From an uncultured virus (IMG/VR IMGVR_UViG_3300002835_015924) (taxonomy: Duplodnaviria; Heunggongvirae; Uroviricota; Caudoviricetes): 20,000 bases of DNA. Location of the stretch: the IMG/VR virus record IMGVR_UViG_3300002835_015924; one strand, 5' to 3'. Positions within the stretch are counted from its first letter, which is position 1; each line of letters starts with the position of its first letter. Under the pieces are notes generated by a model. That model was given only the letters and a program-made list of their open reading frames with translations. It was not told where the DNA came from and made no database searches. Below, one piece after another: positions 1,248 to 19,787 of this stretch. A program made the position numbers and the translations under genes.

Positions 1248-1297
1248 TTAATTCTTATACACATTTCTGTTACAAAATACAAATGTATAATTAAGTT
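1248..1297. promoter_or_regulatory. Bidirectional pair of leaderless-type -10 boxes (GTATAAT-N6-ATG on +, GTATAAG-N6-ATG on -)
   Basis: Read directly; same architecture at 3082-3118, 5874-5921 and 9888-9921. Confidence 0.75.
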
Positions 1298-3081: not shown

Positions 3082-3118
3082 AAATATTTTATACATTGAC
3101 TAGCTGTATAATAACCAT
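3082..3118. promoter_or_regulatory. Bidirectional pair of -10 boxes (GTATAAT-N6-ATG +; GTATAAA-N6-ATG -)
   Basis: G at 3106 (+) and 3094 (-), each 13 nt before the ATG. Confidence 0.75.
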
Positions 3119-4096: not shown

Positions 4097-4125
4097 CGGC
4101 AATTTTATGCAGTTTTTTTAAAACA

Positions 4126-4890
4126 TCATAGCTTATCTTTGTATCTCTCAGGAATGACAGATATTCCCTGTATTAATGCCGCATCATACCATTCAGACCT
4201 CAATTTTTCATCTTTTTTGAATTGGTGAAATCCTGGTTGACCTGGGTTTGGCCCAAAATTAGGATGCAGATTTTTAGCGTCCACAAAGTTTGCTCGTCTT
4301 GCATTATCAATTCTGAAATCAAACAGTTTTAAATGAAAGTTCATCAAATCTTCATCTCTTGCAACTACTGGTTCACTCGAGTGAAATCCCAACCCATAAC
4401 TTTTTACTGGTTTTCTTATGATTACCAACTTGTCTTCTGCATCATCTTTATAAAAATAGTGTCTTTGGGAAAGAATTTTAAGATGATGGTTGTAAGGCTC
4501 TTCATCTTCAATGATATTAATAACGGTATAACCATTCACTTTGATATAGTCTTGTTGATTTAACTCAATGTAATGCTTTAAGTCTTTATACTTATCTGGG
4601 TCTGGAATAAAGTATTGATCAGCTTCTGCAAAAATTACTACATCGTAATCTTTCAGTAGATTTTGTTGTGATTCCATAACTACTTGAATATGACTGGCAA
4701 CATCAGCATGATATTGTGGATTATACTCAATAAGATTTACTTTTTCATCAAACATTCGTATGAATGGATCTTTGTCAGGCTCCACTATGGCAAACAAATT
4801 TTCATATCCAAAAAGCTGTCCATAATAATTTTGCCAAATATTAGTGAAAAAGAATTCTTTATAAAAAATTCCCAATACCGCTATTTTCAT
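4126..4890 (-). CDS. Putative family-2-like glycosyltransferase (Glyco_tranf_2_4-like)
   Basis: YYGQLFGYENLF...YDVVIFAEADQYFIPDP...GFH...FHLK pattern; coupled to upstream epimerase via TAATG overlap at 4890. Confidence 0.6.
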   Translation of the reverse strand: MKIAVLGIFYKEFFFTNIWQNYYGQLFGYENLFAIVEPDKDPFIRMFDEKVNLIEYNPQYHADVASHIQVVMESQQNLLKDYDVVIFAEADQYFIPDPDKYKDLKHYIELNQQDYIKVNGYTVINIIEDEEPYNHHLKILSQRHYFYKDDAEDKLVIIRKPVKSYGLGFHSSEPVVARDEDLMNFHLKLFDFRIDNARRANFVDAKNLHPNFGPNPGQPGFHQFKKDEKLRSEWYDAALIQGISVIPERYKDKL

Positions 4891-5873
4891 TATTTATCAT
4901 TCCTTGTAAAAACCCATTGATTGTTAAGAATCCAATCCACAGTATCAAAAACACTTTGCCTAAGATCATACTTAGGATTCCAGCCTGTGGAAATTAATTT
5001 GTCTACACAGGGCATTACTACAGGATTGTCCCCAACCCAGCCAGTGGCTTCTTTCCCGTATTCAATTTCACCCTTATAATTGGTTCTTTCTAAAATAGCA
5101 TTTACAGAATACTTTAGCTTCATAGCATTTGGGTGTCCAACATTAAATGCCTCAAATTGTGTTTTTGAATCATAGTTAATTAAATGAATGATTGCATCTA
5201 CCGCATCTTGAATGTGTAAATAAGATTTTAGCTGTCCTCCTGAACCAAGAATATTAAGTTTTTTGTCGCCATTCAAAATATTCTTAACAAAATCGTATAC
5301 GTGTCCATGAGAATATCTTGCACCCAGCATGCTAACAAAACGCATTGAATAAACTTGCAAGTCAAAAGTATTTGCAAATCCCTCTAGAATTTTTTCGCTT
5401 GCGATTTTTGTGGCAGCATATACTGAAGTTTGATCGCATATTTCATCTTCTTTGGATGGATACAAATTGGGGTCTCCATAAACTGAACAAGTGGATGCAA
5501 AAAGAAACTTTTTAGTTCCAGCTTTGATAGCTGCCTCTATTAAGTAATTTGTAACATTAATGTTTTTTTCTAAGCACTCTGAGTAGTTATTTTTGTTATT
5601 GCTGATGTCAGCTAAGGCAGCTAAATGAACAATACAATCAACGTTTTCTAACACTGAACTTGAAAAAGAACTATCAATTGTTTTCTTGTTGAAAGAAAAT
5701 CTTTCATTGCCTTTATATGGCAGCAAATGCTCCACAAATCCGGTGGATAAATTATCGTAAGCAATAATTTTGTAGTCCGTAGTGTTGAGAATTTTTTCTA
5801 CTAGATTTGTTCCAACAAATCCAGCAGCACCTGTAATTAAAATTGTTTTTGAGGATTGAGTGTTTTGGCTCAT
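4890..5873 (-). CDS. NAD-dependent nucleotide-sugar epimerase/dehydratase (extended SDR; start revised to MSQNTQ at 5873)
   Basis: GAAGFVG, HLAALAD, ASTCSVYG, YAATK, GWVGDNP; revised start removes overlap with divergent gene and has a GTACAAA box upstream. Confidence 0.9.
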   Translation of the reverse strand: MSQNTQSSKTILITGAAGFVGTNLVEKILNTTDYKIIAYDNLSTGFVEHLLPYKGNERFSFNKKTIDSSFSSSVLENVDCIVHLAALADISNNKNNYSECLEKNINVTNYLIEAAIKAGTKKFLFASTCSVYGDPNLYPSKEDEICDQTSVYAATKIASEKILEGFANTFDLQVYSMRFVSMLGARYSHGHVYDFVKNILNGDKKLNILGSGGQLKSYLHIQDAVDAIIHLINYDSKTQFEAFNVGHPNAMKLKYSVNAILERTNYKGEIEYGKEATGWVGDNPVVMPCVDKLISTGWNPKYDLRQSVFDTVDWILNNQWVFTRNDK

Positions 5874-5921
5874 ATTATTTTTTGTACACAGATTTACCTT
5901 ATTTAAACGTATAAAAAAAGT
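5874..5921. promoter_or_regulatory. Bidirectional pair of -10 boxes (GTATAAA-N6-ATG +; GTACAAA-N7-ATG -)
   Basis: G at 5909 (+) and 5887 (-). Confidence 0.7.
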
Positions 5922-6845
5922 ATGAGTAAAATCGCTGTATTTGGTGGCCTTGGGTTTATTGGACAAAATTTATGTAAAGATCTTCTACAGGATAATGAAG
6001 TAATTATCTTTGACAATCATTCTAATCCCTCTCGTTTATCTGGCGAATTGGACTACTATGTTTCTGATGCTAGAATCAAAAGAGAAGTGGATGATTTTTT
6101 TGAACAACACCAATTTGATGCAGTCATTAATCTAGTTGCAAATGCTGACATTCAAGTGTCCACCACTGACCGATTCATTGACTTTGAATTATCCCCAATA
6201 ACTAATTTGAACATTTTAGCCGCTTGCGAAAAGAATAATGTTCCTAAATATGTTTATTTCTCAGGCTCTGGTGTTTATGGCCCCTCAGAAGACTTGACAC
6301 CCAAATATGAAAGTGACGCATCATTAAATTGCCCATCTATGTACGCTTGTTCAAAAATTTCTTGTGAATCGTTTGCCACTGCATTTGCAAATACTTCCGA
6401 TATGTCAGTAGCTATTTTACGACCTGCAAACATTATTGGGCCAGGTTTGACTCATGGCTTGATTTATGATGTTTTGCTGAGAATCAAAAATAACAGAGAA
6501 CAAATACACATTTTAGGAAATGGCACTCAACAAAAATCTTATATTCACACTGACGATATTATTTCTGGTGTTAGATTTATGTTGGATACAAACGAAAAAG
6601 TTTCCATTTTCAACATAGCATCTGATGACACTATTACTGTTAAAGAAATTGTTGATGAAATTATCGAGCAAACAGGTTTTGGTACAAAAGTAAATTATGG
6701 AGAAAAAAATATAGGATGGGTTGGCGATGTTCCAAAAATTCAATTAAATTGTGATAAATTAAAGTCCATTGGGTGGAGTCCTAAATATAATTCCAAGCAA
6801 GCTGTTTACGAATCCGTAAAGGCTAATCTTGATTTATTGTTTTAG
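5922..6845 (+). CDS. NAD-dependent nucleotide-sugar epimerase/dehydratase (paralog of the divergent neighbour)
   Basis: GGLGFIG, SGSGVYG, YACSK, GNGTQQKSYIH, GWVGDVP. Confidence 0.9.
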   Translation: MSKIAVFGGLGFIGQNLCKDLLQDNEVIIFDNHSNPSRLSGELDYYVSDARIKREVDDFFEQHQFDAVINLVANADIQVSTTDRFIDFELSPITNLNILAACEKNNVPKYVYFSGSGVYGPSEDLTPKYESDASLNCPSMYACSKISCESFATAFANTSDMSVAILRPANIIGPGLTHGLIYDVLLRIKNNREQIHILGNGTQQKSYIHTDDIISGVRFMLDTNEKVSIFNIASDDTITVKEIVDEIIEQTGFGTKVNYGEKNIGWVGDVPKIQLNCDKLKSIGWSPKYNSKQAVYESVKANLDLLF

Positions 6846-6856
6846 AACTCCCTAAT

Positions 6857-7405
6857 TTATAGCGCGTTCACTAAATAGTGCCAAAAAACTGCTTGTAAAC
6901 TTTCGGCCACTGGTGTAATCATAGCTGAATCAGAAGGACAAAAATGAATGCATGCGTGTGCTTTCTGTTTTGTGTAACCTCCATCTCTAGAAACTATACC
7001 TAAAATATAGGCTTCTTTTTTAATTGCGTAATCAATTGCTTTGACAATATTTCTGGAGGTGGTTTCTGATCCTCCTCCAACACTAAACACAATGATCGCA
7101 TCTTTCTCTTCCAAATTGCTTGTCATCAAGCTTGATTCAAAACAATCTTCAAAACTTACATCATTGATATATGCTGTAAGCTCTGAAACATTATCTACTG
7201 GGGTCAATGCATCAATTCCTCCAATTTTCCTAAAGTCATTTACTGCATGGGAGCAATTAGCGGCTGAACCACCTACTCCCAAGAAAAAAATTCTACCCTT
7301 TCGCTCTTTCACTAGTTTAATGATGCTCACAAATTCTTGCAAAGTTTCTTCACTCACTTGCGAAATGCATTCTTCTACTGCTTTTATGTATTCTTTATAA
7401 ATCAT
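6857..7405 (-). CDS. gmhA: SIS-domain phosphoheptose isomerase-like protein
   Basis: GVGGSAANCSHAVNDF, SELTAYIND, FSVGGG, AESLQAVFWH motifs. Confidence 0.85.
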   Translation of the reverse strand: MIYKEYIKAVEECISQVSEETLQEFVSIIKLVKERKGRIFFLGVGGSAANCSHAVNDFRKIGGIDALTPVDNVSELTAYINDVSFEDCFESSLMTSNLEEKDAIIVFSVGGGSETTSRNIVKAIDYAIKKEAYILGIVSRDGGYTKQKAHACIHFCPSDSAMITPVAESLQAVFWHYLVNAL

Positions 7406-8094
7406 AATGTTAGCCCCGCTTTTTTAGCATCATTCAAGAATTGCTCGGATGACAATTTTGCTATGTCATATCCAGTGTAATCAAACCAATTAAATTTAGC
7501 AATATATGATGTGGGCACTGTAATTATATCACAACCGCAATCTGCAGCTTGTTTGATATTATAAAGCTCTCTCATCGAAGCCCATAGCACTTGTGACTTT
7601 GGAAAGAATTTTTTCACTTTTTGACAAACCACCATAGCATCATTTAGTGTATCCAGAATTCTTCCAGCAAAAACTGAAATAATAAGATTTTCGGAATCAA
7701 CTAGACGTGTAAGCTGTAAATGTTCACCCACACATGTGAGATTAATTTTTACATTTTCGGAAATAAGTTTGTTAACTAATGCAATATTGCTACTACCATC
7801 AGGGTTCAAGACAGGAATTTTTACATAAACATTTTCTCCCATACTAGAAAGTAATGTGGCTTGTCGATGCATCTCTTCTTGGTCATCACTTACTACCTCA
7901 AAAGATAGTGGCGCAGTGGGAATTAGTTTCAAGATTTCTTGGATTGTTTCAATGTAGGATTTATCTCCAATTTCTTTAGCAATCAAGCTAGGATTAGTGG
8001 TGAAACCACAAAATCTTTCGTCGTTGGCGAATTTTCGAAGTTCATCAAGGTTTCCAGTATCACAGTAAAGCTTGATTTCAGGCAATTTGCTCAT
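7402..8094 (-). CDS. tal: Transaldolase (short TalC/FSA family; sugar-cluster subtype)
   Basis: DTG, GFTTNPSL, SFEV, YVKIP (Schiff-base Lys), SVFAGRILD, LWASMRE, DIITVP. Confidence 0.9.
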   Translation of the reverse strand: MSKLPEIKLYCDTGNLDELRKFANDERFCGFTTNPSLIAKEIGDKSYIETIQEILKLIPTAPLSFEVVSDDQEEMHRQATLLSSMGENVYVKIPVLNPDGSSNIALVNKLISENVKINLTCVGEHLQLTRLVDSENLIISVFAGRILDTLNDAMVVCQKVKKFFPKSQVLWASMRELYNIKQAADCGCDIITVPTSYIAKFNWFDYTGYDIAKLSSEQFLNDAKKAGLTL

Positions 8095-8097
8095 GTA

Positions 8098-9231
8098 TTA
8101 ATTATACATTTTTGTGAACTTCAAACCAAAGTTTTTTGCACATTCCTCATCGCATTCAGAATCTCCATAGAAAATTGAATTTTTTGAGATTTGAATTTTT
8201 TTACTTGCTTTTGACAGCATTCCTATAGCCGGTTTTCTACATTCACAATCATATCTTAACGGATCAAAAACATCGTCTTTCTTCTCAACATCCCTGTGTA
8301 TGCAACTCATAGAAAAAATAACATTTTTGTGATTATCTATCAAAAATTGCCTTGCATTATGAGTCATTCTATTAATATCTGATAATTTTGCAGTGTATCT
8401 TGTTTTATCAGGTTGATTTGTCACAATTACACAATTGGAGTTGTCTAACATAGGCAGCAAAGCGTGTATTGGTTCAAATTTCATGTGTTTGTAAATATCT
8501 GGATCCCATTTGTTTATTGTCCCATCACGATCTAAAAAATTATAAGTGTTGGTCTGCTTAAAGCGCTTAAATGTTTCATTCACTTTTTCATAATCTTCCA
8601 GTGTATTTATTTGATAATAATTTGCATTTGCAAAATGCACTTTGTAAAACAAACAACTTTTGAAATAATCTGAAAAATTAACTGGCTCTTTAAAAAGAAT
8701 TTTTTTGAAAGCATCTTTAGTAAAAATAGATATTCCGTGCTCAACAAAATTGCAATTTTTTGTCCCAATAATGAAATTAGAGGATTTAATTGATGGGTGT
8801 TGTTCTAATTGAATTTCAAAATTTGAATGAGGTGATTTGTAATTCGAAACTGACATCATACAGTTTTGTTTAGATTCAATAAAATGCCAATACATGAACT
8901 CTAAATCACAAAAAGCCACGGAGTCTCCATAAGTCACAAAAAAACTGTCATCGAGATGTGGCTTTGCACATTTTAAAGCTTCCCATGTTCCACAAGATTC
9001 ATATGGATCTAATGTGTAAGAAAAATTAATCTCTAAACTTTTCAAGTGCTCAATTACTTCTTGTGCATAAAACCCAAGACAGAAATGAAATTTTTCAATA
9101 CCTTGATTCTTGAATTCTCTCACAATGTAGTTGATAATTGGTTCTTCAGCAACTTTGACTAAACATTTTGCTAAATCTACTTTGAGACGTGTGCCTTTAC
9201 CTCCAGCAAATATAACCGCTTGATTTATCAT
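8098..9231 (-). CDS. Fusion of sugar-1-phosphate nucleotidyltransferase (HddC-like) and HAD heptose-bisphosphate phosphatase (GmhB-like)
   Basis: N-terminal AVIFAGGKGTRL...KCLVKV and VTYGDS; C-terminal FLDRDGTIN, VTNQP, CIH...CECRKPAIGML, GDSECD. Confidence 0.87.
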   Translation of the reverse strand: MINQAVIFAGGKGTRLKVDLAKCLVKVAEEPIINYIVREFKNQGIEKFHFCLGFYAQEVIEHLKSLEINFSYTLDPYESCGTWEALKCAKPHLDDSFFVTYGDSVAFCDLEFMYWHFIESKQNCMMSVSNYKSPHSNFEIQLEQHPSIKSSNFIIGTKNCNFVEHGISIFTKDAFKKILFKEPVNFSDYFKSCLFYKVHFANANYYQINTLEDYEKVNETFKRFKQTNTYNFLDRDGTINKWDPDIYKHMKFEPIHALLPMLDNSNCVIVTNQPDKTRYTAKLSDINRMTHNARQFLIDNHKNVIFSMSCIHRDVEKKDDVFDPLRYDCECRKPAIGMLSKASKKIQISKNSIFYGDSECDEECAKNFGLKFTKMYN

Positions 9232-9887
9232 GTCACAAGTCCTTGAACAATAATGTTCGCTATTCCAGCATTCTTCTTTTCACACACAGATGACAAAGTT
9301 AGCGACCAAAGTCTTTCACACAAGCATCCCCCCTTTCTTACATCATCATAAATTGTTCCATTATAATCTAGCTTGTAATTAAAAGACTCTAAAGTAAGAA
9401 TTAAGTTTTGTGTGTAAATGCGTTTTGCTTTTTCATAAAGTTCAGTTTTGCAAATGAAAGAATTACAATAAAAAATAGAGTTTTCTAAAAATTGTTTTTC
9501 AATTTTTGTTAATTCACAATAATGGTCAATGTATTTTTGAATACCGGGATGCCAATGATTAGCTTGCGCAACCCAATCTTTTCTAGATGAAACAATTGGA
9601 GTTAAATCATAATTTTCATAATCTGCAGCTTGTAATCTTTGAATCAACAAATCATTATTAGCCAGTCCAAATTTTTGTGCAAAACTTGCAGACACAAAAC
9701 CGACATAATCAGTATTTGTGCTTAAATCTGAAAAATGCGACCGGTATTCTTGCAGAAAAGGCCATGCCGTTTTAAGATATGGTGGACAAGGCAATTTTTC
9801 TAAGTTGACAAATTCACCAGGAACGCTTTTTTGATATTCATCAAGAGAATCAACATGCCACAATTTATAGAATTTTATCGAATGCAT
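9228..9887 (-). CDS. Hypothetical glycan-related protein (weak resemblance to DUF4422-type glycosyltransferase-associated domains); start revised to MHSIKF at 9887
   Basis: DYVGF...FYCNSFICK...R-GGCLCERLWS pattern; GTACAAA-N6-ATG box; ATGA coupling to downstream gene. Confidence 0.5.
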   Translation of the reverse strand: MHSIKFYKLWHVDSLDEYQKSVPGEFVNLEKLPCPPYLKTAWPFLQEYRSHFSDLSTNTDYVGFVSASFAQKFGLANNDLLIQRLQAADYENYDLTPIVSSRKDWVAQANHWHPGIQKYIDHYCELTKIEKQFLENSIFYCNSFICKTELYEKAKRIYTQNLILTLESFNYKLDYNGTIYDDVRKGGCLCERLWSLTLSSVCEKKNAGIANIIVQGLVT

Positions 9888-9921
9888 GGATTTTTTGTAC
9901 CGTAAAACGTACAATTGTGTT
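9888..9921. promoter_or_regulatory. Bidirectional pair of -10 boxes (GTACAAT-N6-GTG +; GTACAAA-N6-ATG -)
   Basis: G at 9909 (+) and 9900 (-). Confidence 0.7.
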
Positions 9922-10854
9922 GTGAGAAATTTTAAAAAAATATTAGTTACTGGCGGCGCCGGTTTTATAGGAAGTTATTTTGTAGATTTATGTTTAGAAA
10001 AAAATATATCTGTGGTAAATATAGATGCTCTTAAAACAGGAAGCATGCTTGAACATGGCCCAGTCAAACAACATGAATTTTATCATTTTCTGCCTTTTGA
10101 TATTTCAAACCCATCTTTAATCATACCAGATGACATAGATTGTATAGTTCATTTTGCTGCTGAAACTCATGTAGATAGAAGTGTGAGTGACCCCTTTTCT
10201 TTTGTTCAATCTAATGTTATTGGCACCTATAATTTATTAAATAAATGCATAAATAAAGATATTTGGTTTCATTTAATTTCCACTGATGAAGTATACGGGG
10301 ATGTAATTCACAAAGATCAACCCTCTAAAGAAACTGATTCAATCCATTCATCCTCTCCATATTCAGCTACAAAAGCAGCTTCAGAACAATTGGTAATTTC
10401 ATACGGAAGAACATATGGCTTAAATTTCACAATAAGCAGAGGATGCAACACAGTGGGAGGAAGACAAAATTCAGAAAAACTTTTACCCAAGTTCTTGCAT
10501 AATGCTCAAAACGGAATTCCTTTGCCTGTGTATGGAGATGGTTCTGCAATCAGGCAGTATATTCATGCGGAGGATCATGTAAGTGCTGTTTACAAAATTC
10601 TTACACAAGCAGAATCTAATTCCATTTGGAATGTTTGCGCTGATTTAAGTTATTCAATCAATGATATTGTAGAAATATTAAAAAATAAATTTCCTGATTT
10701 AACAATTACTGATAGAGAAAATCGCCCTGGCCATGATTTAAAATATAATATTGATAACACAAAACTGAAATCTGTTTTGTGTTGGTCTCCTGTTTACCAA
10801 GGCAAAAACATCATTTTGAAATCCATAGATGAATTAGCTAAAAAAAACGTATAA
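9922..10854 (+). CDS. rmlB: dTDP-glucose 4,6-dehydratase (start revised to GTG at 9922)
   Basis: GGAGFIG, HFAAETHVDRS, ISTDEVYG, SPYSATKA, RPGHD; GTACAAT-N6-GTG box. Confidence 0.92.
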   Translation: MRNFKKILVTGGAGFIGSYFVDLCLEKNISVVNIDALKTGSMLEHGPVKQHEFYHFLPFDISNPSLIIPDDIDCIVHFAAETHVDRSVSDPFSFVQSNVIGTYNLLNKCINKDIWFHLISTDEVYGDVIHKDQPSKETDSIHSSSPYSATKAASEQLVISYGRTYGLNFTISRGCNTVGGRQNSEKLLPKFLHNAQNGIPLPVYGDGSAIRQYIHAEDHVSAVYKILTQAESNSIWNVCADLSYSINDIVEILKNKFPDLTITDRENRPGHDLKYNIDNTKLKSVLCWSPVYQGKNIILKSIDELAKKNV

Positions 10855-10891
10855 TATAAATATAAAATGAATTTAAAGGAGATTGGCGAAT

Positions 10892-11098
10892 ATGCAAAAA
10901 GAATTTACAGGCTTGGAGTTAGGGCTTATGGTTAAGAATAAGAAAACATTAAAAAATTGGATGGTGACAGAACTTATTACATCATATTCATCCATTGCCA
11001 AGCAGTCTCCCGATGAATTTAAGGTAAGATTGTCAAACGGAATGGGCAAATATGTAATTGTCCCAATAGATAAATTGAACAAAAATTACGAGTGGTAA
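10892..11098 (+). CDS. Small hypothetical protein (about 68 aa)
   Basis: ORF filling the gap between rmlB and ahcY; AAGGAG SD at 10876-10881; GTATAAT at 10849-10855; start could be TTG 10883. Confidence 0.6.
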   Translation: MQKEFTGLELGLMVKNKKTLKNWMVTELITSYSSIAKQSPDEFKVRLSNGMGKYVIVPIDKLNKNYEW

Positions 11099-11100
11099 AT

Positions 11101-12336
11101 ATGTCATTAGCAGATAAAGGTAGACAAAGAATTGAATGGGCATCACGAGAAATGCCTGTTCTTAATTTAATTAAGCAACGTTTCTCGCACACCAAGCCTT
11201 TTGCAGGCAAACGAGTGGCAGCATGTATGCATATAACCACAGAAACTGCAAACTTAGCATTAACACTAGCAGAAGGTGGGGCATTTGTGTGTTTATGTGC
11301 TTCAAATCCACTGTCCACACAAGATGACGTAGTTCACGCTTTGAACTCTTCTCCAAATATTAAAGTTTTTGCAAAACATGGTGACGATCACGATACATAT
11401 TATTTGCATATTAAGGCTGCTCTAAGTTGTAAACCCCATTTAGTTATGGATGATGGCTGCGATCTTGTGAATTATCTTTACACTAAAGAACCTATGTTAC
11501 TTGAAAATGTTATTGGGGGGACAGAAGAAACAACCACAGGTGTGCAAAGACTTAAGGCTATGCAACGTGATGGATTATTGAAATACCCAATAGTTTGTGT
11601 AAATGATGCTTTAACAAAACATATGTTTGATAATCAATACGGCACTGGTCAATCTACGTTAGATGGTATTATTAGGGCTACAAATATTCTGATAGCAGGC
11701 AAGATTGTTGTTGTGGCAGGATATGGTTGGTGCGGAAAAGGTTTAGCATTCAAAGCTAGGGGCATGGGAGCCAGAGTAGTAGTTACTGAAGTAGACCCTA
11801 TCAAAGCTTTACAGGCACACATGGATGGTTTTGATGTTGATTCTATGCACAACGCAGGTTTGTATGGGGATATTTTTATCACAGTAACAGGAAATAAAAA
11901 TGTTATAAACGAATCGCATTTTAGCTCTATGAAAGACGGCGCAATACTTTGTAATTCTGGGCATTTTGATTCAGAAATAGACATTAAAAGTTTACAAAAC
12001 TTATCATCAAGTTATAAACCTGTTAAAGATAACATTATTGAATACACAATTCAGGGAATAGATAATCGTAGGCTATATGTTTTAGGCGAGGGAAGATTAG
12101 TTAATTTAGTTTGCGCTGAAGGTCACCCATCTGCTGTAATGGATATGTCTTTTGCGAATCAAGCACTGTGCGCTGAATGGCTTTGCAACAATGAGGCCTC
12201 AAATTGTTTACACTCTGTTCCAGAAGCAATAGATCAAGAAGTGGCAAAGTTAAAACTTGAATCTCTGAAAATCAACATAGATGTTTTAACAGATGAGCAA
12301 ATTCAATATCTAAATTCGTGGCAAGAAGGCACTTAA
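11101..12336 (+). CDS. ahcY: S-adenosyl-L-homocysteine hydrolase (adenosylhomocysteinase), short type
   Basis: EMPVL, ACMHITTET, SNPLSTQD, MDDGCDL, EETTTGV, KHMFDNQYGTGQS, GYGWCGKG, NSGHFD, GRLVNL, GHPSAVMDMSFANQ; ATG at 11101 directly after upstream stop. Confidence 0.97.
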   Translation: MSLADKGRQRIEWASREMPVLNLIKQRFSHTKPFAGKRVAACMHITTETANLALTLAEGGAFVCLCASNPLSTQDDVVHALNSSPNIKVFAKHGDDHDTYYLHIKAALSCKPHLVMDDGCDLVNYLYTKEPMLLENVIGGTEETTTGVQRLKAMQRDGLLKYPIVCVNDALTKHMFDNQYGTGQSTLDGIIRATNILIAGKIVVVAGYGWCGKGLAFKARGMGARVVVTEVDPIKALQAHMDGFDVDSMHNAGLYGDIFITVTGNKNVINESHFSSMKDGAILCNSGHFDSEIDIKSLQNLSSSYKPVKDNIIEYTIQGIDNRRLYVLGEGRLVNLVCAEGHPSAVMDMSFANQALCAEWLCNNEASNCLHSVPEAIDQEVAKLKLESLKINIDVLTDEQIQYLNSWQEGT

Positions 12337-12360
12337 GATTTTCAATAGGAATTAAATATT

Positions 12361-12624
12361 ATGTCAGATTATCCAACAATTATTTTACCAAATTCTGTAG
12401 AAGTACAGCCTGCCATTAACACTGATACATTCAAGGTGTTGCAAGTGGCTGAAAACCCTGATGAAAAATGGCTTAACGCTTATGTTAGCGGTGGCGCTCA
12501 AAATGTTTGGGTATCAGTGTTGACACCAGAAACCTATCATGCTGATTGGAGCGATGAAACCATCTCGGAAGCTGTGATTTTGTGGGCTGAAGCCACTTAT
12601 CCTCCTTCACTTAAAAGAATATGA
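12361..12624 (+). CDS. Hypothetical protein (87 aa, acidic, phage-like)
   Basis: ORF with ATGA coupling to next gene; AGG-N19-GAAT motif upstream. Confidence 0.7.
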   Translation: MSDYPTIILPNSVEVQPAINTDTFKVLQVAENPDEKWLNAYVSGGAQNVWVSVLTPETYHADWSDETISEAVILWAEATYPPSLKRI

Positions 12625-12950
12625 CAAATCTATATTATTTTACTTCAAAAAATTGTTACATTTATTGTTTTGCTCACACTATCGAAGAGGCAATTAAGTT
12701 TATTAAAGCAAATTGTCCCACGTATAATCGTTTATATTCTTATAATGTAAAACTAGTAGAAGATGAAGTTTTGCAAGAGGATGGCGTGGAAATTTTAAGA
12801 AAAAACAATTTTGTTGGTATTCCTGAAGTAAAACATTTCATGTTAAATGGCTCAGTATCTGCTCAGCAAAATCATTTTGACACAAAACAGAGGTCTGCAA
12901 GACTTTGGTGCTCCAAAGAAGTGCCAGAAACCACGCAACTTTGGAAGTAA
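12621..12950 (+). CDS. Hypothetical protein
   Basis: 109-aa ORF, ATGA-coupled, no recognisable motif. Confidence 0.65.
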   Translation: MTNLYYFTSKNCYIYCFAHTIEEAIKFIKANCPTYNRLYSYNVKLVEDEVLQEDGVEILRKNNFVGIPEVKHFMLNGSVSAQQNHFDTKQRSARLWCSKEVPETTQLWK

Positions 12951-12979
12951 AAAAAACGTAAATTCAAATAGGATATTTT

Positions 12980-13408
12980 ATGGATGAAAATTTAAGAAAT
13001 AATTTAGGCGAGCTTTTTCCGGAACTGGTTTTTTTTGATGACCCAGTGAAAGATTCTTCGATTGTTGGGTTAGGTTTACTTAATGATAATGGGCCAGCAT
13101 GGTGTGTTGTTTACGATGAAAACTTAGTTATTAATGATTTATTGTCTGAGTTTGGTGATGAACAGGATGCTATCGATTGGTACAGCTATAACACTGCTGG
13201 CACATACTGCGGCGAAACCACTCCAATATTCATTCATGAAAATGATTACAATGATTTTCCAGCCTCAAGAATAGGAAGGGAATTTTTAAGCTTTTATCGT
13301 TTGCATGATATCAAAGACTACGAACAGGCTTTACATCTTGTTTCAAATGAAAATTTCTTTGTGTTTGTTGGCTTGAATCAATTAGATGAAATCAGAGATA
13401 TAGTTTAA
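12980..13408 (+). CDS. Conserved phage-type hypothetical protein
   Basis: DSSIVG...VVYD...DAIDWYSYNTAGTYCGETTPIFI pattern recalled from a widespread small phage protein family; AGGA SD upstream. Confidence 0.7.
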   Translation: MDENLRNNLGELFPELVFFDDPVKDSSIVGLGLLNDNGPAWCVVYDENLVINDLLSEFGDEQDAIDWYSYNTAGTYCGETTPIFIHENDYNDFPASRIGREFLSFYRLHDIKDYEQALHLVSNENFFVFVGLNQLDEIRDIV

Positions 13409-13734
13409 TGCGGTATAGATGGATTATATATTATGATGGCGCTTGTCCTTTGTGTGAAAATGCGGCTTCTACCTTGAAACTTTTAATTTGGAATTACATA
13501 AAACTGACATTTGTTGATTTGAACGGTGAAATAGCAAAAGCTAAAGGATACAGCAACAAGCAGGTAGTTTTAGAAACTTCACAAGGTGTGTATTTTGGTA
13601 TGCAAGCATGGCTAAAAATACTAGAACACACCAAGTACAGTTGGGCAACACATATATTATTGAGGCCTTTGTTTTGTGTGCTTTATTTCATTGTTTCTAG
13701 AAATCGAAAACTTTTAAGTAAAATATTTTCTTAA
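13408..13734 (+). CDS. DCC1-like (DUF393) thiol-disulfide oxidoreductase family protein
   Basis: N-terminal YYDGACPLC (DxxCxxC) and C-terminal LYFIVSRNR. Confidence 0.8.
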   Translation: MRYRWIIYYDGACPLCENAASTLKLLIWNYIKLTFVDLNGEIAKAKGYSNKQVVLETSQGVYFGMQAWLKILEHTKYSWATHILLRPLFCVLYFIVSRNRKLLSKIFS

Positions 13735-14132
13735 TCTTCTAAGGCTGCTTTAAGTATTTGAGCTAAGTCCATCACAGCTTGTTGATCGTCGCCTTCGTTT
13801 TCATTAGTTATTGTTTCAATAACATCCTGAAATTCAGGAGAATTAACGATTTCAGCGGCAATTTCAGAAGCCTGTTCGTCAATATCTTGTTCAGGCATAT
13901 CTCCAGACATATCTTCAGGCTCAGAAAAATCTGACTCTTCCATAACTGGATTTTCAATTGGTGGGAACAGTTTTGTGTCAACAGTAGTCACATCTGTGTC
14001 TGGAGCAATTTCATCAGCAGCATCACCGATAACATCAGTTAACTTCTGTGATACTTCTGGGTTATCATTTTCTAATTCTTCGGCCATTTGCGAAAGTCTT
14101 ATTAAATTTTTAAGCAATTTAATTTTATCCAT
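13731..14132 (-). CDS. Acidic hypothetical protein with N-terminal LIRLSQMAEELE motif
   Basis: 133-aa D/E-rich ORF; promoter motifs upstream. Confidence 0.75.
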   Translation of the reverse strand: MDKIKLLKNLIRLSQMAEELENDNPEVSQKLTDVIGDAADEIAPDTDVTTVDTKLFPPIENPVMEESDFSEPEDMSGDMPEQDIDEQASEIAAEIVNSPEFQDVIETITNENEGDDQQAVMDLAQILKAALED

Positions 14133-14165
14133 TAATTACTTTTTACACATTACTTAACAACAATC

Positions 14166-14330
14166 CTTTATCTGATTTTACGTGAACTACCGCTAGGCTA
14201 AAGACCCAGCGGCTTCCTGCTTCATAGATTCCGATTTGCGGCCCGTGAGGGCCGTAGGGATCAGATTCTCCACAGGCGTGAATTCGGTATGTTCCGTACC
14301 TATAAGATTTTTTCCGAATAATATCATCAT
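14166..14330 (-). ncRNA. Predicted TnpB omegaRNA/reRNA (scaffold overlapping tnpB 3' end to 14182; guide approx. 14181-14166)
   Basis: Established architecture of IS605 TnpB; GC-rich hairpins CGGCCC-GTGA-GGGCCG (14239-14254) and the RE hairpin (14190-14212). 5' boundary is approximate. Confidence 0.65.
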
Positions 14331-15491
14331 GTTAGCTGAGTGAACATCTCGATCACAACTATAACCACAAGCACATTCATAAATACGCTGACTCAGATTG
14401 TGTTTGTTCTTGCATCCGCAAATGCAAGTCTGTGTAGTTGGAATGAATTGATCTAACATAGTTGCTCTTTCACAGCTCTTTAGTTTCATTTTCACTCTTC
14501 CCAACACAGAATGTTGTATCTTCTTACTTCCTCTGGCTAATGATTTTTTATTCTTCCATCCTTTGATGTTTTCGTCTTGAAAATAAATATGTTCAGATTG
14601 TTTCAATTCTGACACAATCTTATTAGCAATATCATTTTTAACATTACTAATCTGTTGATATTCTTTTCTGATTTTCTTGATTGTTTTATTTCTGTTGTTA
14701 GAACTTTTTTTTCTTCTAGATAATTCTCTTTGAAGAGTTTTTAGTCGTTCAGTTTCTTCAACATAAACATTGATTTTCTTTCCATTTGATAAAGTTATAT
14801 TATTCTTAATGCCCATGTCCAGTCCTATACTGGTTCCTGGTTCATACTGATCTTTCACTTTGCTTTTATGTACATATGTCGTGATAGCTACATAATATCC
14901 ATCCGGTCTGCTAATCAGTTTTGCATTAGCACAATCACAATCTGGATCAAGCTGGTGTGATCCTTTAACTCTAACATCCCCTGAAACTCCTTGTATTTTC
15001 ATTTTTGTTTCAGATTTAATTTTGTATGTAGCTCCAAATTGTTTTAGATTAATTGAATTCACTTCAGATGTGAATTTTAGACTTCCTATTTTCTTTCCTT
15101 TCTCTCTAATTCTTGCAAGAACCCTGATATTGTCTTTCACTTCATCTATTACAGACTGGGTTTGCTGTGCTGAGATGAATTTCTTTTCTCTTAATTCAAG
15201 ATTTCCATCTTTATTCATCACTTGAATGAAATCACCACATTTATAATCAAAAATGGGATTATCTTTTCCGAAAGCAATCATTTCATTTCTAATCCATTTA
15301 GCTTCAACAAAAAGCATTTTTAGTTGTTCTTTTTGCCTTTGATTAAGTTTATTAGATTGTATTTTAACTGTTATAACTTTACAAGATTGGGTTTTTCGTT
15401 TTTCCTTAGTTTCAGACATGCTCATGCTAATCAGCATGTTCCGCTCGGAACGTGCTGATTGATCCATATTAGATCTTCTGTGATGAGGCAT
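14193..15491 (-). CDS. tnpB: TnpB RNA-guided endonuclease
   Basis: RuvC-I GLDMGIK, RuvC-II region IYFQDEN, Zn finger CICG...CACG, RuvC-III DRDVHSA; C-terminal tail overlapping right end. Confidence 0.93.
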   Translation of the reverse strand: MPHHRRSNMDQSARSERNMLISMSMSETKEKRKTQSCKVITVKIQSNKLNQRQKEQLKMLFVEAKWIRNEMIAFGKDNPIFDYKCGDFIQVMNKDGNLELREKKFISAQQTQSVIDEVKDNIRVLARIREKGKKIGSLKFTSEVNSINLKQFGATYKIKSETKMKIQGVSGDVRVKGSHQLDPDCDCANAKLISRPDGYYVAITTYVHKSKVKDQYEPGTSIGLDMGIKNNITLSNGKKINVYVEETERLKTLQRELSRRKKSSNNRNKTIKKIRKEYQQISNVKNDIANKIVSELKQSEHIYFQDENIKGWKNKKSLARGSKKIQHSVLGRVKMKLKSCERATMLDQFIPTTQTCICGCKNKHNLSQRIYECACGYSCDRDVHSANMMILFGKNLIGTEHTEFTPVENLIPTALTGRKSESMKQEAAGSLA

Positions 15492-15532
15492 AATGCAGGA
15501 TTCTTATCTAACTATAACTAAACCTTCTTTAT
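15492..15532. promoter_or_regulatory. Overlapping face-to-face AGG-N19-NAAW motifs serving tnpA and tnpB
   Basis: CAGGATT (AGG 15497-15499, -36 of tnpA ATG) and AAGGTTT (AGG 15525-15523, -34 of tnpB ATG). Confidence 0.5.
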
Positions 15533-15955
15533 ATGAAAAATATAGTAAATAAAAAATATAAATCAAATTGTCATCAAAAATACAGAACTAGATACCATTT
15601 TATTTTTTCGACTAAATATAGAAAGAAATGTCTAAAAGGTATTGAAGCAGAGACTGAATTAGCCTTTAGATATAGCGAATCAATATCTGATTACAAAATA
15701 CTTTATTTTGGAATAGATAAAGACCATGTACATTTATTAGTAGAATTTAAACCTAGTTTATCGATAGGGCAAGTTGTTAATAGAATGAAATCTATAACTA
15801 CAAACGAGCTTTGGAAAAATAAATCTGAACATTTGTCAAAATTTTATTGGAAAAATAAGAAATTATTATGGACTCATGGATATTTTGCTGAAACAACAGG
15901 CAATGTTAGCGAAGCTAACATTGCTGAATACATTCTTGAACAAGGTCTTAAATAG
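15533..15955 (+). CDS. tnpA: IS200-type Y1 (HUH) transposase
   Basis: YHFIFSTKYRK, DKDHVHLLV (HUH), LWTHGYF, EYILEQ (catalytic Tyr). Confidence 0.95.
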   Translation: MKNIVNKKYKSNCHQKYRTRYHFIFSTKYRKKCLKGIEAETELAFRYSESISDYKILYFGIDKDHVHLLVEFKPSLSIGQVVNRMKSITTNELWKNKSEHLSKFYWKNKKLLWTHGYFAETTGNVSEANIAEYILEQGLK

Positions 15956-16019
15956 AAATTCACATGACGATGCTAAAGACATCGCATCTATCTTTCTATT
16001 TTTTTCGTATAATACTAAT

Positions 16020-16562
16020 ATGACTATCATATCTTGTTCTTATAAAAAACGTGTTGGAAAAGATACATTTTGTCGAATTGTGCAAGAGCTTTTTCCTGAT
16101 AAAAAAGTAATTAGAGTGGCTTTTGCAGACGAGCTTAAAGAAGAATTGGACACCATTTTATTAAAGCCAAATGGAATATCTAGAAGAATTTTTGAAGACC
16201 CAAAAGTCAAAGAAATTGCTAGACCTCTGCTACAGGGCTGGGGAACAATTCGTAGAGAATTTTGTGACATCAATTATTGGGTAAAAAGGGCTTTTTGGAA
16301 GATGAACGATCCAAATGCAATTTACATTATTACTGATGCCAGATACTTGAATGAAATTGAATTTATTAATTCGCAAAATGGTCACACAGTTCACATCAAA
16401 CGTAATCTAGATGTAGATTCTTTGTCAGAACATTCTTCAGAAACTGAATTAGACAATTATCATCATTTGTTCAAATACACCATTGAAAATTATGGTACAG
16501 AAGCTCAATTTAAAGAAAAAATCAAAGATTTAATGGACAAGATTTTTGCTGAAGCCGCTTAA
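16020..16562 (+). CDS. Deoxynucleoside monophosphate kinase (phage T4 gp1-like); start revised to ATG 16020
   Basis: KKRVGKDT P-loop variant, AFADELK, RPLLQGWGT, ITDARYLNE, HSSETELD; the longer ORF-track extension lies inside the IS left end. Confidence 0.85.
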   Translation: MTIISCSYKKRVGKDTFCRIVQELFPDKKVIRVAFADELKEELDTILLKPNGISRRIFEDPKVKEIARPLLQGWGTIRREFCDINYWVKRAFWKMNDPNAIYIITDARYLNEIEFINSQNGHTVHIKRNLDVDSLSEHSSETELDNYHHLFKYTIENYGTEAQFKEKIKDLMDKIFAEAA

Positions 16563-17098
16563 TTGGCTTCAGCTTTTTTCTCAAGTTCTAACACAAGTTT
16601 TTTAAGTTCGCTCAAGTCTTCTGTCACAAACAAATTGAAGATAGGTATTTTTTTATTCTGAGCTATTCTTAATGCTTGCCCAGTGCCCCCTTTCCAATTG
16701 CCAGAGGCATCTACTTCACAATAACAAACAATGAAATTAGATTTTGTTTGGCAATTTTCTCCAAGCACTTGATAGCTGTTTCTAGCCATAAGTTTTTGCA
16801 CACCATCACTTGTTTCAAAAAGATTGGGGTGAAATTGAAAAGCGATCTCAAATGCTTTTGCGCATTGTGTGTATAGCAAAGAAGGATGATTATTAAAGCC
16901 TTTCCACGGAAGATAAATTTCTTTTTTGCCATTTTGTGAATCACAGCCTTTTTCAAAAGCTTTGTCTGCTCCATCTGCCGCGCCAGATCTCAACACAAAA
17001 CCTTTTTTTGCTAAGACAGCCCCAATTTTTTCCATAATTTTTAGAATATTTTCAGGTGTAGAGCGAGAACCAATTCCTGCGTAGTAAATTACATCCAA
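16559..17098 (-). CDS. SLOG-superfamily (DprA/Smf-like Rossmann) protein, phage type
   Basis: YAGIGSRSTP, LRSGAADGADKAFE, IYLPW, ARNSYQVLG, GGTGQALRIA. Confidence 0.8.
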   Translation of the reverse strand: MDVIYYAGIGSRSTPENILKIMEKIGAVLAKKGFVLRSGAADGADKAFEKGCDSQNGKKEIYLPWKGFNNHPSLLYTQCAKAFEIAFQFHPNLFETSDGVQKLMARNSYQVLGENCQTKSNFIVCYCEVDASGNWKGGTGQALRIAQNKKIPIFNLFVTEDLSELKKLVLELEKKAEAN

Positions 17099-17685
17099 GG
17101 GTTTCCACCATAAACTTGAATCAGAGATTCCTTTACTTTAAGCCTATCTTTACTCACGCTGATTTTTTTATCGTATGATGATTGTGTGATATTTTCTGGC
17201 CAAATATAATCCCTTCTAAATAAATCTGGGTCTTTCATTTCTTCCCATTTGAATTGTGAATACCATTGTATAGTTTCATCTGCCTTCTTTCTGCCATTTT
17301 CTTTTTCTTCAAAGCCTTTTTGAAGTAATCTAGCTCTGTGCGAAGAGTGTATTTCTTCGTCACCAAGCCATACAGGAGAAGAAAGTGAAGTAGTATATTT
17401 CTTATATTCTGACAGTTTTGCGTCAATATAATCAGTTTTACAATCTCGATTTTTCATTTCTAGAGAATTGTAAATCAAATATTCCACTAAGGCTCCAGGT
17501 GTGGCAGCCCAGGCAATCAAAGCTGGATGATTCATCCATCCTTTTCTGAGTTTACCTGATTTTGTTGGAATATTGAACATTATATCTAGCAATTGTGAAG
17601 CTTCTAATCCTTGTTTCACTAATCTTTTTGTGTCTAATGATTCAAGGCTTTTTTGATAATCGGCATAGGGCATAAATACTTGCAT
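17089..17685 (-). CDS. Pyrimidine-dimer DNA glycosylase/endonuclease V-like protein (MSMEG_6728 family)
   Basis: MQVFMPY...LDTKRLVKQGLE, GWMNHPA, WLGDEEIHSSHRARLLQK, YIWP. Confidence 0.8.
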   Translation of the reverse strand: MQVFMPYADYQKSLESLDTKRLVKQGLEASQLLDIMFNIPTKSGKLRKGWMNHPALIAWAATPGALVEYLIYNSLEMKNRDCKTDYIDAKLSEYKKYTTSLSSPVWLGDEEIHSSHRARLLQKGFEEKENGRKKADETIQWYSQFKWEEMKDPDLFRRDYIWPENITQSSYDKKISVSKDRLKVKESLIQVYGGNPWM

Positions 17686-17740
17686 ATTTAATATTACGAA
17701 AAATAATTGAAAAATAGGTAAGTTTTGTGTGACTTGAGTA

Positions 17741-17769
17741 GTAACAAATTAGACACACAAAACGTCTAA
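17741..17769 (+). promoter_or_regulatory. Putative ECF-sigma-type promoter GTAAC-N17-CGTCTA upstream of the STN gene
   Basis: GTAAC 17741-17745 and CGTC 17763-17766, matching the AAC/CGT ECF consensus. Confidence 0.45.
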
Positions 17770-17806
17770 AGAATAGTAACTCAATGAAGAGTTAAATTGG
17801 AGAAAA

Positions 17807-18412
17807 ATGAACAAAAAAATTTTAAGTTTTGTATTAATTGTGATAAGCCTTTTCACATTCGCCTCATTGTCTTGCGCACAATTCAATGGTTCTACCAAAA
17901 AAATAACTGTGGAATACAAAGACACAGATGTTAGGGAGGCAATTATGGCTATTTTACATTCAGCCAATATCAGTTACTCGATTTATCCAGAAGTGCAAGG
18001 ACAAATAACTTTGTCAGTAAAAGAAGTACCTTTAGAAAATGTTCTAGAAAATATCCTTAGACAAGTGGATTGCACCTACGAATATGTAGCTGGACTGATT
18101 GTCGTTAAGAAGAGAAAGGAAGAAATAATTCCAGAAACTACAGACATAACAACTTCACAACCTAATAAACCCACAAAGGTAATCAGAAGATTAGTGATTA
18201 GAAGTGCAGATCCTTTGCTAATTTCAATGCTGCTCAGTGGAAGCCAAAATTACTTTGGAAGCCCCGAACCCATTCAGGCTTCATACTTATCAACAGGTTT
18301 CGGTATGAATGGCATGTTTTCAGGTATGAACGGAGGAATGAGCGGATTTGGCGGTATGACCGGAAATGGTGGATTTGGTCAATCAGGTGCGCCAGGAAAT
18401 AGAGGTAATTAA
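17807..18412 (+). CDS. Exported protein with secretin/TonB short N-terminal (STN)-like domain and Gly/Met-rich tail
   Basis: Sec signal peptide MNKKILSFVLIVISLFTFASLSCA; ITVEYKDTDVREAI...VQGQITLSVKEVPLENVLENIL; GGMSGFGG tail; GGAG SD. Confidence 0.78.
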   Translation: MNKKILSFVLIVISLFTFASLSCAQFNGSTKKITVEYKDTDVREAIMAILHSANISYSIYPEVQGQITLSVKEVPLENVLENILRQVDCTYEYVAGLIVVKKRKEEIIPETTDITTSQPNKPTKVIRRLVIRSADPLLISMLLSGSQNYFGSPEPIQASYLSTGFGMNGMFSGMNGGMSGFGGMTGNGGFGQSGAPGNRGN

Positions 18413-18416
18413 ATGT

Positions 18417-18440
18417 AGGGGGGAAATCCCCCCTTTTTTT
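18417..18440 (+). terminator. Rho-independent terminator
   Basis: AGGGGGG-AAAT-CCCCCCT hairpin followed by a T-tract, just after the STN gene stop. Confidence 0.85.
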
Positions 18441-18714
18441 ATCTTTCTGAGGGAGGAGTGTATGAAGCGATCAAATCTACTGCAATTTTTTCCAGGCCAT
18501 CCACGCCTTCTGTGACCTTTTCGAGTTGCGTTAAAACTAATTTAAGATTTTCATGCACTTCTTCAAGATGTGGTTCTTCCCAGGTTTGAACTCTTCCAAT
18601 GAGTGCATTTAAATTTAAGAATTGCACTTTATTATGAAATCTGTTCACAATAGCGTCGATTAAAAATACACAATGCAAGATATCCTTGAGTTTTTCTACT
18701 TGTTTTTCTTCCAT
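18439..18714 (-). CDS. Hypothetical protein (91 aa, helical)
   Basis: ORF with GTAAAAT-N6-ATG box. Confidence 0.7.
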   Translation of the reverse strand: MEEKQVEKLKDILHCVFLIDAIVNRFHNKVQFLNLNALIGRVQTWEEPHLEEVHENLKLVLTQLEKVTEGVDGLEKIAVDLIASYTPPSER

Positions 18715-18731
18715 AAAATTATTTTACATTT

Positions 18732-19190
18732 TTATTCTGAAAAAACAGCATACTCTTGACCATTTTTTTCATAAGAGCCTACTTGAATTGCCCCAGCTGC
18801 GTTGATTAAAGCATCTGCACCTTGAGATTTTACCGCTTTCCCTTCGTGACAAGCTATATAATTCATCCCTGGATAATTTTTTTGCATCCATTCTTGGAAC
18901 TGATCTTCATTCGCTTGATAAAGCTCGCCAGCTTTGCCTTCTCTAGGAATACTAAACATTACACCTGATGGTGAATCAATTCCATGAAGCAATAAAATTT
19001 GACTAGTTCTACCATCAGAAGTTTTGACAGTGATTGGTGCAGGAGGACTATTTTGATTTATGTTAGATATGCTTCCTGCAGTAATTTCTACCTCCAGAGC
19101 ACCCCCAGATGGAATTGTTTGTTTAGGTTTGGTAGGGTCTAATTCCTCTGTATTGTTCAAATCTATATTTTGAGAATATCTGTACCACAT
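18732..19190 (-). CDS. Hypothetical protein starting MWYRYSQ (start revised to ATG 19190); possible His-Cys peptidase-like motifs
   Basis: First ATG in frame; TAAAGG motif at -35; LLLHG and YIACH motifs. Confidence 0.7.
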   Translation of the reverse strand: MWYRYSQNIDLNNTEELDPTKPKQTIPSGGALEVEITAGSISNINQNSPPAPITVKTSDGRTSQILLLHGIDSPSGVMFSIPREGKAGELYQANEDQFQEWMQKNYPGMNYIACHEGKAVKSQGADALINAAGAIQVGSYEKNGQEYAVFSE

Positions 19191-19225
19191 AATATTAGTT
19201 TTGTGTGATTTAAAACTCAAAACCT

Positions 19226-19738
19226 TTAAGCAAATTTATCACACTTATCAAAACTTGCACCAAGTTTATCTTTATCAGATATTATTATTGGCAAATCTTT
19301 CCATGCAATTTTAAGGCTATTGTAAATTAAAGTTCTGTCATGTTTGGGGCTATAATAATCTGAACATTTGTAATAGAAAGTAGTGTTTTCTTCTAAACTT
19401 TGAAAACCATGTGCAAACCCTTCAGGCACAAACATTGCTAACCCGTTTTCAGCTGAAAGTTCAATTTCAAACCATTTACCAAATGTTTCAGAAGATTTTC
19501 TCAAATCCACAACAACATCCAATACTTTCCCACACAAAACGTACACCAGTTTTGCTTGTGGATTTTCAATTTGATAATGTAAACCTCTTATCACACCTTT
19601 TTTAGACACAGAGCAATTATCTTGCACAAAATTACAGGGATAAGTTTTGTGTTTGTTGACAAATATTTCAGAAAATTTTCCTCTGTCATCCCCAAAACAT
19701 TTAAGTTGTTGGACAATAATTCCGCCAAATGGTTCCAT
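19226..19738 (-). CDS. rmlC: dTDP-4-dehydrorhamnose 3,5-epimerase
   Basis: DDRGKFSE, VQDNCSVSKKGVIRGLHYQ, QAKLV, DVVVDLRKSSETFGKW, PEGFAHGF, ISDKD. Confidence 0.95.
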   Translation of the reverse strand: MEPFGGIIVQQLKCFGDDRGKFSEIFVNKHKTYPCNFVQDNCSVSKKGVIRGLHYQIENPQAKLVYVLCGKVLDVVVDLRKSSETFGKWFEIELSAENGLAMFVPEGFAHGFQSLEENTTFYYKCSDYYSPKHDRTLIYNSLKIAWKDLPIIISDKDKLGASFDKCDKFA

Positions 19739-19787
19739 TTAATTTTTGTACACAGGTTGTATGTTTACTTTTCTTTAAAATTTCTTT

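Follow-up and report, generated by a model that had tools for sequence, protein, structure and literature searches.

The stretch of DNA considered here (hereafter the window) comprises 20,000 nt of an uncultured virus of the class Caudoviricetes, IMG/VR record IMGVR_UViG_3300002835_015924, and carries an insertion sequence (IS) of the IS200/IS605 family, whose features are collected in Table 1. The element occupies an intergenic position, with a deoxynucleoside monophosphate (dNMP) kinase gene on one side and a gene for a small acidic protein on the other, and contains a Y1 transposase gene, tnpA, and a tnpB gene. These lie on opposite strands, so that the layout is IS605-like and not IS608-like: IS605 and IS606 of Helicobacter pylori have a divergent tnpA–tnpB arrangement, whereas in IS608 of the same species the two genes are co-directional, unlike those of the window. 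The likeness to IS605 and IS606 drawn here concerns their layout.

A scan of both strands of the whole window for hairpins with a TCTTTAG loop and at least seven of eight closing pairs returned exactly two, both on the minus strand and bracketing tnpA and tnpB, while the chance expectation for such hairpins is a mean of 0.14 (300 first-order-Markov random windows). Directly 5′ of each hairpin stands a guide of 4 nt which matches the corresponding cleavage site by the rule known from IS608 (G1:C2, G2:C1, G4:C4), and within the window sequence no repeat is found between the right and left flanks of the element. We consider it likely that this is a complete IS200/IS605-family insertion sequence with the divergent tnpA/tnpB arrangement of the IS605 type, probably still mobile and most likely resident in a huge freshwater phage. 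The family to which it belongs is known and very large, and the element is an ordinary but complete member of it.

Table 1. Features of the insertion sequence and of a related site in the window; positions count from the first letter of the 20,000-nt stretch.
Feature	Position	Strand	Remarks
Insertion sequence, IS200/IS605 family	14182..16006	−	1825 nt; top (active) strand is the window minus strand
tnpA, Y1 (HUH) transposase	15533–15955	+	140 aa; divergent from tnpB
tnpB	15491..14193	−	432 aa; stop codon within right-end hairpin
Flanking target / left cleavage site (CL), TTATAC	16007..16012	−	outside the element; ATAC at 16010..16007; predicted TnpB target-adjacent motif (TATAC)
Left flank bearing ATAC, ...AGTATTATAC	ATAC 16010..16007	−	
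Left end as a whole	15950..16006	−	
Left-end linker, GAAAAAAATAGAAAG	16006..15992	−	15 nt, +1..+15
Left guide (GL), ATAG	15991..15988	−	
Left imperfect palindrome (IPL), ATGCGATG / TCTTTAG / CATCG-T-CAT	15987..15964	−	TCTTTAG loop; extrahelical T
GTGAA	15963..15959	−	3′ of IPL
Left-end outer helix, AAATAGAAA with TTTCTATTT	16001..15993 paired with 15958..15950	−	
Right end as a whole	14182..14216	−	
Right guide (GR), GAAG	14216..14213	−	
Right hairpin (IPR), CCGCTGGG / TCTTTAG / CCTAGCGG	14212..14190	−	loop 14204..14198
Right-end spacer, TAGT	14189..14186	−	
Right cleavage site (CR), TCAC	14185..14182	−	
Right flank, GTAAAATCAGATAAAG	14181..14166	−	predicted native 16-nt ωRNA guide
Putative ωRNA scaffold	14182..14316	−	tnpB 3′ end and right end, to TCAC
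Uninterrupted site orthologous to the L002/L003 insertion	18722..18747	+	reads TTTTAC ... AAAAAAC

Proteins and relatives of the element

TnpA matches the Pfam family Y1_Tnp (E 2.5e-29, 102 bits against a cutoff of 23), and its residues 8–138 align to solved IS200/IS605 transposases, including IS608 TnpA (2a6m/2vhg) and 2xm3; an alignment to 2ec2 places both the H-x-H motif and the C-terminal tyrosine. TnpB exceeds the Pfam cutoffs for OrfB_IS605 (44 bits) and for Cas12f1-like_TNB (27 bits), and a profile built from it and 18 relatives matches the ISDra2 TnpB structures 8bf8, 8exa and 8h1j (E 1.3e-17), from whose sequence that of the window TnpB is nevertheless distant. The RuvC residues D225, E307 and D382 and the zinc-finger cysteines C356, C358, C373 and C375 are invariant in the 19 aligned sequences; a nuclease-dead TnpB was considered and rejected because the catalytic D-E-D residues are among those conserved. 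TnpB is predicted to be an RNA-guided nuclease dependent on a target-adjacent motif (TAM). With both open reading frames at full length with their catalytic residues, and with hairpins and guide/site pairs whole, the element is apparently intact, as the original prediction had held.

A TnpB protein search gave 999 relatives at E ≤0.001 among 3685 candidates, the best of them 94% identical. The loci compared below (L001–L118) were obtained by alignment-based scans and comprise metagenome loci (the best 80 of 344 confirmed) and 38 genome loci, the latter with 32–50% identity and mostly from Spirochaetales, Fretibacterium/Synergistaceae and metagenome-assembled genomes of Bacillota; L001, a 2000-nt contig identical to the window, is not independent of it. 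Across these 118 loci tnpA was found in 45, on the strand opposite to tnpB in 44 of them. The closest sister copy (L002/L003), with 94% identity in TnpB and 92% DNA identity over tnpB, is without tnpA, and L004–L006 likewise have tnpB and both ends with tnpA missing; these are tnpB-only derivatives of the IS1341 type, whereas the window holds the autonomous form. No match was returned by a megablast of window 13000–17500 against a phage GenBank collection, and nothing was found in IMG/VR with either the TnpB protein or the exact right-end hairpin. The right-end pattern GAAG-N8-TCTTTAG-N8-TAGTTCAC was matched by at least 120 IMG/VR stretches.

Ends, guides and target motif

Comparison of the close relatives L002–L013 shows that they have in common, at the right end, CAGGAAG-stem-TCTTTA(G/A)-stem′-GTAGTTCAC, in which stem changes are compensated, and that similarity among them is lost directly past TTCAC. 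One and the same element (L008, L009 and L010, 99.9–100% identity over 1689–1877 nt) has three different right flanks which diverge right past TTCAC, and a further element (L012 and L013) has two. Distinct right ends fitting the search expression number 22 in L001–L118, 20 of them with GAAG/TCAC and two with GAAA/TCAT, and guide and site are concordant in every one; the change to GAAA/TCAT is that expected if base 4 of the guide pairs with base 4 of the site. The shared motif, the divergence after TTCAC and the concordance of guide and site thus fix the right boundary to the base, exactly after TCAC at 14182, which is where the original prediction had put it. L013 (1782 nt) carries, about 1 kb on from the right end of its L012-type element, the left end of an L009-type relative, indicating that two related IS lineages share one genome.

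For the left end the comparison starts from IS608, in which, according to those parts of the published accounts available to us, the left guide AAAG at +16..+19 pairs with the cleavage site TTAC through A+16:T−3 and A+17:T−4 (PMC5934647) and cleavage falls directly 3′ of the guide-paired TTAC, 19 nt from the hairpin foot (PMC3201880). The window and 273 loci were scanned with an expression that called for a guide of 4 nt, a stem of 8 bp in which seven or more positions pair, a T/C-C/A-TTTA-G/A loop and, last, an (A/G)(T/G)GAA(T/C) tail; of the 54 matches, 45 were unique by flank and element. The tetranucleotide predicted from the guide was present, across a linker of 13–16 nt, in 40 of these 45 left ends, as against 11.5 on average and at most 21 in 2000 shuffles of the guide labels, the left ends being related so that the counts are not independent events. 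Guides AAAA, AAAG and AAAT predict TTAT, TTAC and TTAA, which were found in 8/9, 17/19 and 4/4 cases respectively, while ATAG, the guide of the window, predicts ATAC, found 13–16 nt upstream in 8/9. The matrix of guide and site classes is essentially diagonal, its off-diagonal counts being only two, and the single cases AGAG with CTAC and AGAC with CTAG agree with crossed pairing. The ATAG class spans at least three distant lineages, namely the clade of the window, L069/L072/L073 (42% TnpB identity) and L148. In addition, the base immediately following the left hairpin on its 3′ side covaries with the second guide base, being G in 9/9 ATAG ends and A in 35/36 others, a dependence that can be likened to the base triplets of IS608 as far as the available part of their description extends (PMC5934647). 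A pattern scan of IMG/VR for left ends of the ATAG type gave 19 loci, 18 of which were dismissed as chance matches, L148 alone having a real hairpin.

The position of the left cut was further delimited by copies of single elements in different surroundings. L009 and L010, which hold the same 1877-nt element, have common sequence starting at TTATAC and continuing through 15 nt and ATAG into the hairpin, while for L072 and L073 the common sequence begins only at TAC. TTATAC flanks the element of the window as well as those of L002, L009, L010 and L012; the left end of L002/L003 reads TTATAC, 16 nt, ATAG and that of L012 TTTATAC, 14 nt, ATAG, whereas in L004–L006 the guide is AAAG and TTAC lies exactly 15 nt 5′ of it. 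Where the ATAG class has inserted independently, TTATAC or TATAC adjoins the element in all but one case, with only diverged orthologous sites for comparison. At the ATAC sites of this class T is found at −5 in 8/8 and at −6 in 5/8, and the target motif is therefore best written 5′-TATAC. A left boundary that coincides with the end of TTATAC, or is displaced from it by one or two bases at most, is well supported by these sequences.

All the strings that had originally been quoted for the two ends are present on the minus strand where they had been placed. The original prediction had called the left end from the pairing of ATAC with the guide, and the relatives back that pairing, although the copies bracket the cut only to the shared TTATAC or TAC; of its target, (TT)ATAC, the ATAC holds up within the ATAG class and TATAC is the better form of the whole. 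Its description of the ends as in IS608 holds for the left guide, which lies at +16..+19 in both elements; a detail that differs is the right cut, which is 8 nt from the hairpin foot in the window and 10 nt in IS608 in the part of the account available (PMC3201880).

The predicted TAM, 5′-TATAC, and the predicted native guide, the 16 nt GTAAAATCAGATAAAG that follow the right end, are both assigned by analogy with ISDra2-type TnpB, for which the TAM is expected to equal the target motif of the transposon. Among the titles listed by a literature search for a TnpB with ‘TATAC’ (10 of 29) all were unrelated, the scope of the search stopping short of the supplements of screening papers, so that such a TAM may already be published. 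The last 135 nt up to TCAC fold jointly in 11 of the 19 aligned relatives (the eight left out include those with large insertions), with 29 pairs of which 21 show compensatory changes (RNAalifold). The fold comprises parts resembling those of an ωRNA, namely a 5-bp hairpin in the coding region, a long-range stem (GCCTG...CAGG), an inner variable stem and the right-end hairpin, and by its sequence this region looks like a putative ωRNA scaffold. Rfam gave only a sub-threshold match to RAGATH-18 at 14214–14276 (26.7 bits against a gathering score of 44.9).

A second helix accompanies the left hairpin. In an alignment (A4) of 31 of the 41 distinct left ends, bases of the linker towards its 3′ side are paired with those coming after (A/G)TGAA, and the left palindrome and this outer helix covary together over 15 pairs, 13 of which have changes on both sides; within the outer helix itself, 12–14 sequences have changes on both sides in 5/6 pairs. 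In the window (15950–16001, minus strand) the helix is at least 6 bp long. In IS608, by contrast, the accessible part of the description gives a separate small hairpin at +46..+60, 3′ of the left palindrome (PMC5934647). The tnpA gene ends beside the outer helix in the copies examined in detail and the linker is often A-rich, which suggests that the helix may be a terminator of tnpA on the other strand; it may instead pre-position the cleavage site.

Host genome, orthologous sites and rival readings

The dNMP kinase of the window has a 65% identical homologue in L119, an IMG/VR record of 347,392 bp (99% complete according to CheckV) that is syntenic with window 9931–19753 at 68–90% DNA identity. 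L119 is without the element between the acidic-protein and kinase genes, where its intergenic region is 49 nt long, and the local alignment of the left flank of the window to it stops exactly on the C of TATAC in L119. The window in turn offers an uninterrupted site orthologous to the insertion in L002/L003, since the left flank of L003 and the right flank of L002 are syntenic with window 16583–18714 and 18789–19748: the alignment of the L002 left flank stops exactly at window 18727, TTTTAC in the window corresponding to TTATAC in L002, and AAAAAAC, which lies 3′ of TCAC in L002, is present at window 18741–18747. Flanks and orthologous sites were compared by pairwise local alignments, which replaced poor three-way MAFFT alignments. 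One IS lineage has thus inserted twice, independently, into related genomes, as the window copy and the L002/L003 copy, and the 92% identity of their tnpB DNA compared with only about 70% for the host flanks suggests recent movement of the lineage. Judged from the synteny, the host is most likely a huge freshwater phage.

The 12 nt ATTTTTATTCTG at window 18728–18739, between TTTTAC and AAAAAAC, match the first left-end bases of the L002 element (L002 432–443) in 7 of 10 positions, a resemblance that is probably due to chance in AT-rich DNA. The acidic protein beside the right end (13731–14132, minus strand) has 133 aa as against 834 aa in its homologue in L119 (1450–3954), the two corresponding in a few N-terminal residues and in the last ~125 aa; this gene next to the IS has to all appearances undergone a large internal deletion or insertion. 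A search of IMG/VR with the acidic neighbour protein found nothing. The dNMP-kinase gene of L119 (4004–4678) has an internal insert of ~40 aa resembling the C-terminus of the window open reading frame 13408–13734 (70% over 40 aa with window 13597–13716, tblastx), which looks like a recombination scar between two genes. Elsewhere in the window (1–11000 and 19226–19738) lie sugar-nucleotide genes (four epimerase/dehydratase-like open reading frames, a dTDP-4-dehydrorhamnose 3,5-epimerase and a transaldolase) together with an S-adenosylhomocysteine hydrolase, a DprA-like protein and a pyrimidine-dimer glycosylase, and this is a set of auxiliary genes typical of very large phages. Several copies of related ISs with guide AAAA and target TTAT occur in two complete or near-complete huge-phage records of IMG/VR, G001 (348,671 bp with terminal repeats; L208) and G002 (334,687 bp; L158); in a comparison of the two for insertion polymorphisms only the IS parts matched and no empty sites were seen.

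Several observations weigh against a complete, still mobile element in a huge phage with the left end placed as above. Contigs of low depth were placed on the window from four runs (one RNA, three DNA); contigs of three runs (X12, X14 and X19) bridge the left end and one contig of a single run (X14) the right end, all with the same insertion, and the exact copy was seen in one context only. The circle junction and the donor joint, a check named beforehand, were not seen in the low-depth contigs of these four runs, nor was an end of the RNA, and the RNA library yielded a single 226-nt contig, inside tnpB only, which may be DNA carry-over. An exact empty site was not encountered: the orthologous sites found are diverged, with length differences of 12 and ~19 nt beside the junction, and give support to the boundaries without being precise. 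That the host is a phage is read from one syntenic record, L119, which IMG/VR classes as a provirus. Finally, L072 adjoins GTAC and not ATAC, and the linker is 16 nt in the closest sister L002 and 14 nt in L012 as compared with 15 nt in the window, a variation owing to which geometry alone leaves the left cut unfixed to the base. The single context and the missing joints would suit an element that is structurally intact but immobile, fixed in its phage lineage with TnpB and its RNA no longer acting on it, as would the presence of half or more of the sampled words in each of 19 lake and freshwater metagenome DNA runs. The intact reading frames, hairpins and guide/site pairs speak against such a resident, as does the sister copy at another site, whose flanks are far more diverged than its tnpB, and we regard permanent fixation as unlikely. 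In two of the runs a 262-nt contig was also observed to end (X12) or to start (X19) at 14180, 1–2 nt from the right junction; these breaks may be a coincidence of low coverage.

A different concern is whether the left cut lies one base off, or whether the TAM is longer than, or different from, the TnpA target (TTATAC, or ATAC with a downstream preference). The linkers of 13–16 nt among relatives, the invariant T at −5 and the bracketing of the boundary only to TTATAC or TAC would all be accommodated in this way, but the tetranucleotide predicted by the guide is found in 40/45 left ends, both orthologous-site alignments stop on the C of TAC, and IS608 is cut directly 3′ of its guide-paired tetranucleotide in the portion of the account at hand (PMC3201880), making a shift improbable. 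That TnpB is no nuclease at all, acting as an RNA-guided repressor of the TldR-like kind or being kept only for regulation of the transposon, finds a precedent in the nuclease-dead TnpB derivatives that exist according to the available part of one report (bioRxiv 10.64898/2026.09.22.753285). Here, however, the RuvC and zinc-finger residues are invariant in all 19 aligned relatives, and the gene belongs to an element that has both its ends and a tnpA, the context of an autonomous transposon, so that we hold this reading to be highly improbable. The reading of a complete and probably mobile IS605-type element is accordingly the one retained below.

Proposed mechanism and significance

In the mechanism we propose, TnpA would bind the two hairpins on the single-stranded top strand and cut after ATAC and after TCAC. 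Excision would then give a circle with the junction TCAC-GAAAAAAAT and a donor resealed as ATAC-GTAAAATC, and the circle would re-insert 3′ of (T)TATAC. TnpB would be loaded with an ωRNA drawn from the 3′ end of its own gene and the right end and reading on into the flank, and could in this form cut the resealed donor joint, recognized through the TAM TATAC and a 16-nt match, after which recombination with another copy of the genome would restore the element. A homing role of this kind is familiar from work on TnpB.

The known system closest to the ends described here is IS608, which shares with the window element a Y1 TnpA and a TnpB, subterminal hairpins that both lie on the same strand, guides of 4 nt abutting the 5′ side of each hairpin foot, a target 19 nt 5′ of the left foot, crossed pairing and an extrahelical T in the left hairpin, as far as the accounts available go. 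The differences concern the left guide and site (ATAG/ATAC in the window, AAAG/TTAC in IS608), the right guide and site (GAAG/TCAC against GAAT/TCAA), the shorter distance of the right cut from its hairpin foot, and the sequence 3′ of the left hairpin, which pairs with the linker in the window instead of forming a small hairpin of its own. With the TnpB–ωRNA of ISDra2 from Deinococcus radiodurans the window TnpB has in common the profile match and, in putative form, an RNA scaffold lying across the end of the tnpB gene and the right end of the element; the predicted TAM is TATAC in place of TTGAT. A wider reading would see in these data an IS lineage moving among diverged huge freshwater phages, with TnpB–ωRNA homing by the cutting of element-free genomes, and a clade with a left-end helix architecture undescribed for IS608 in the parts of its literature available; as a whole it is offered tentatively, and we think it more doubtful than probable.

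The window element provides a clean autonomous example of the IS605 type, the ends, target TATAC and predicted native guide of which can be read from the sequence together with comparative data. It represents a candidate compact TnpB nuclease with a predicted TAM unlike TTGAT and TTAC; since TnpBs with a wide range of TAMs are on record in large number, little would be gained in practice. Across a large clade of TnpBs the guide/target rule of IS608 predicts the motifs TTAT, TTAC, TTAA, ATAC, CTAC and CTAG, and is in this respect useful for the prediction of TAMs in silico. The presence of the element in what are most likely huge phages, and its apparent recent movement there, add a modest ecological point.

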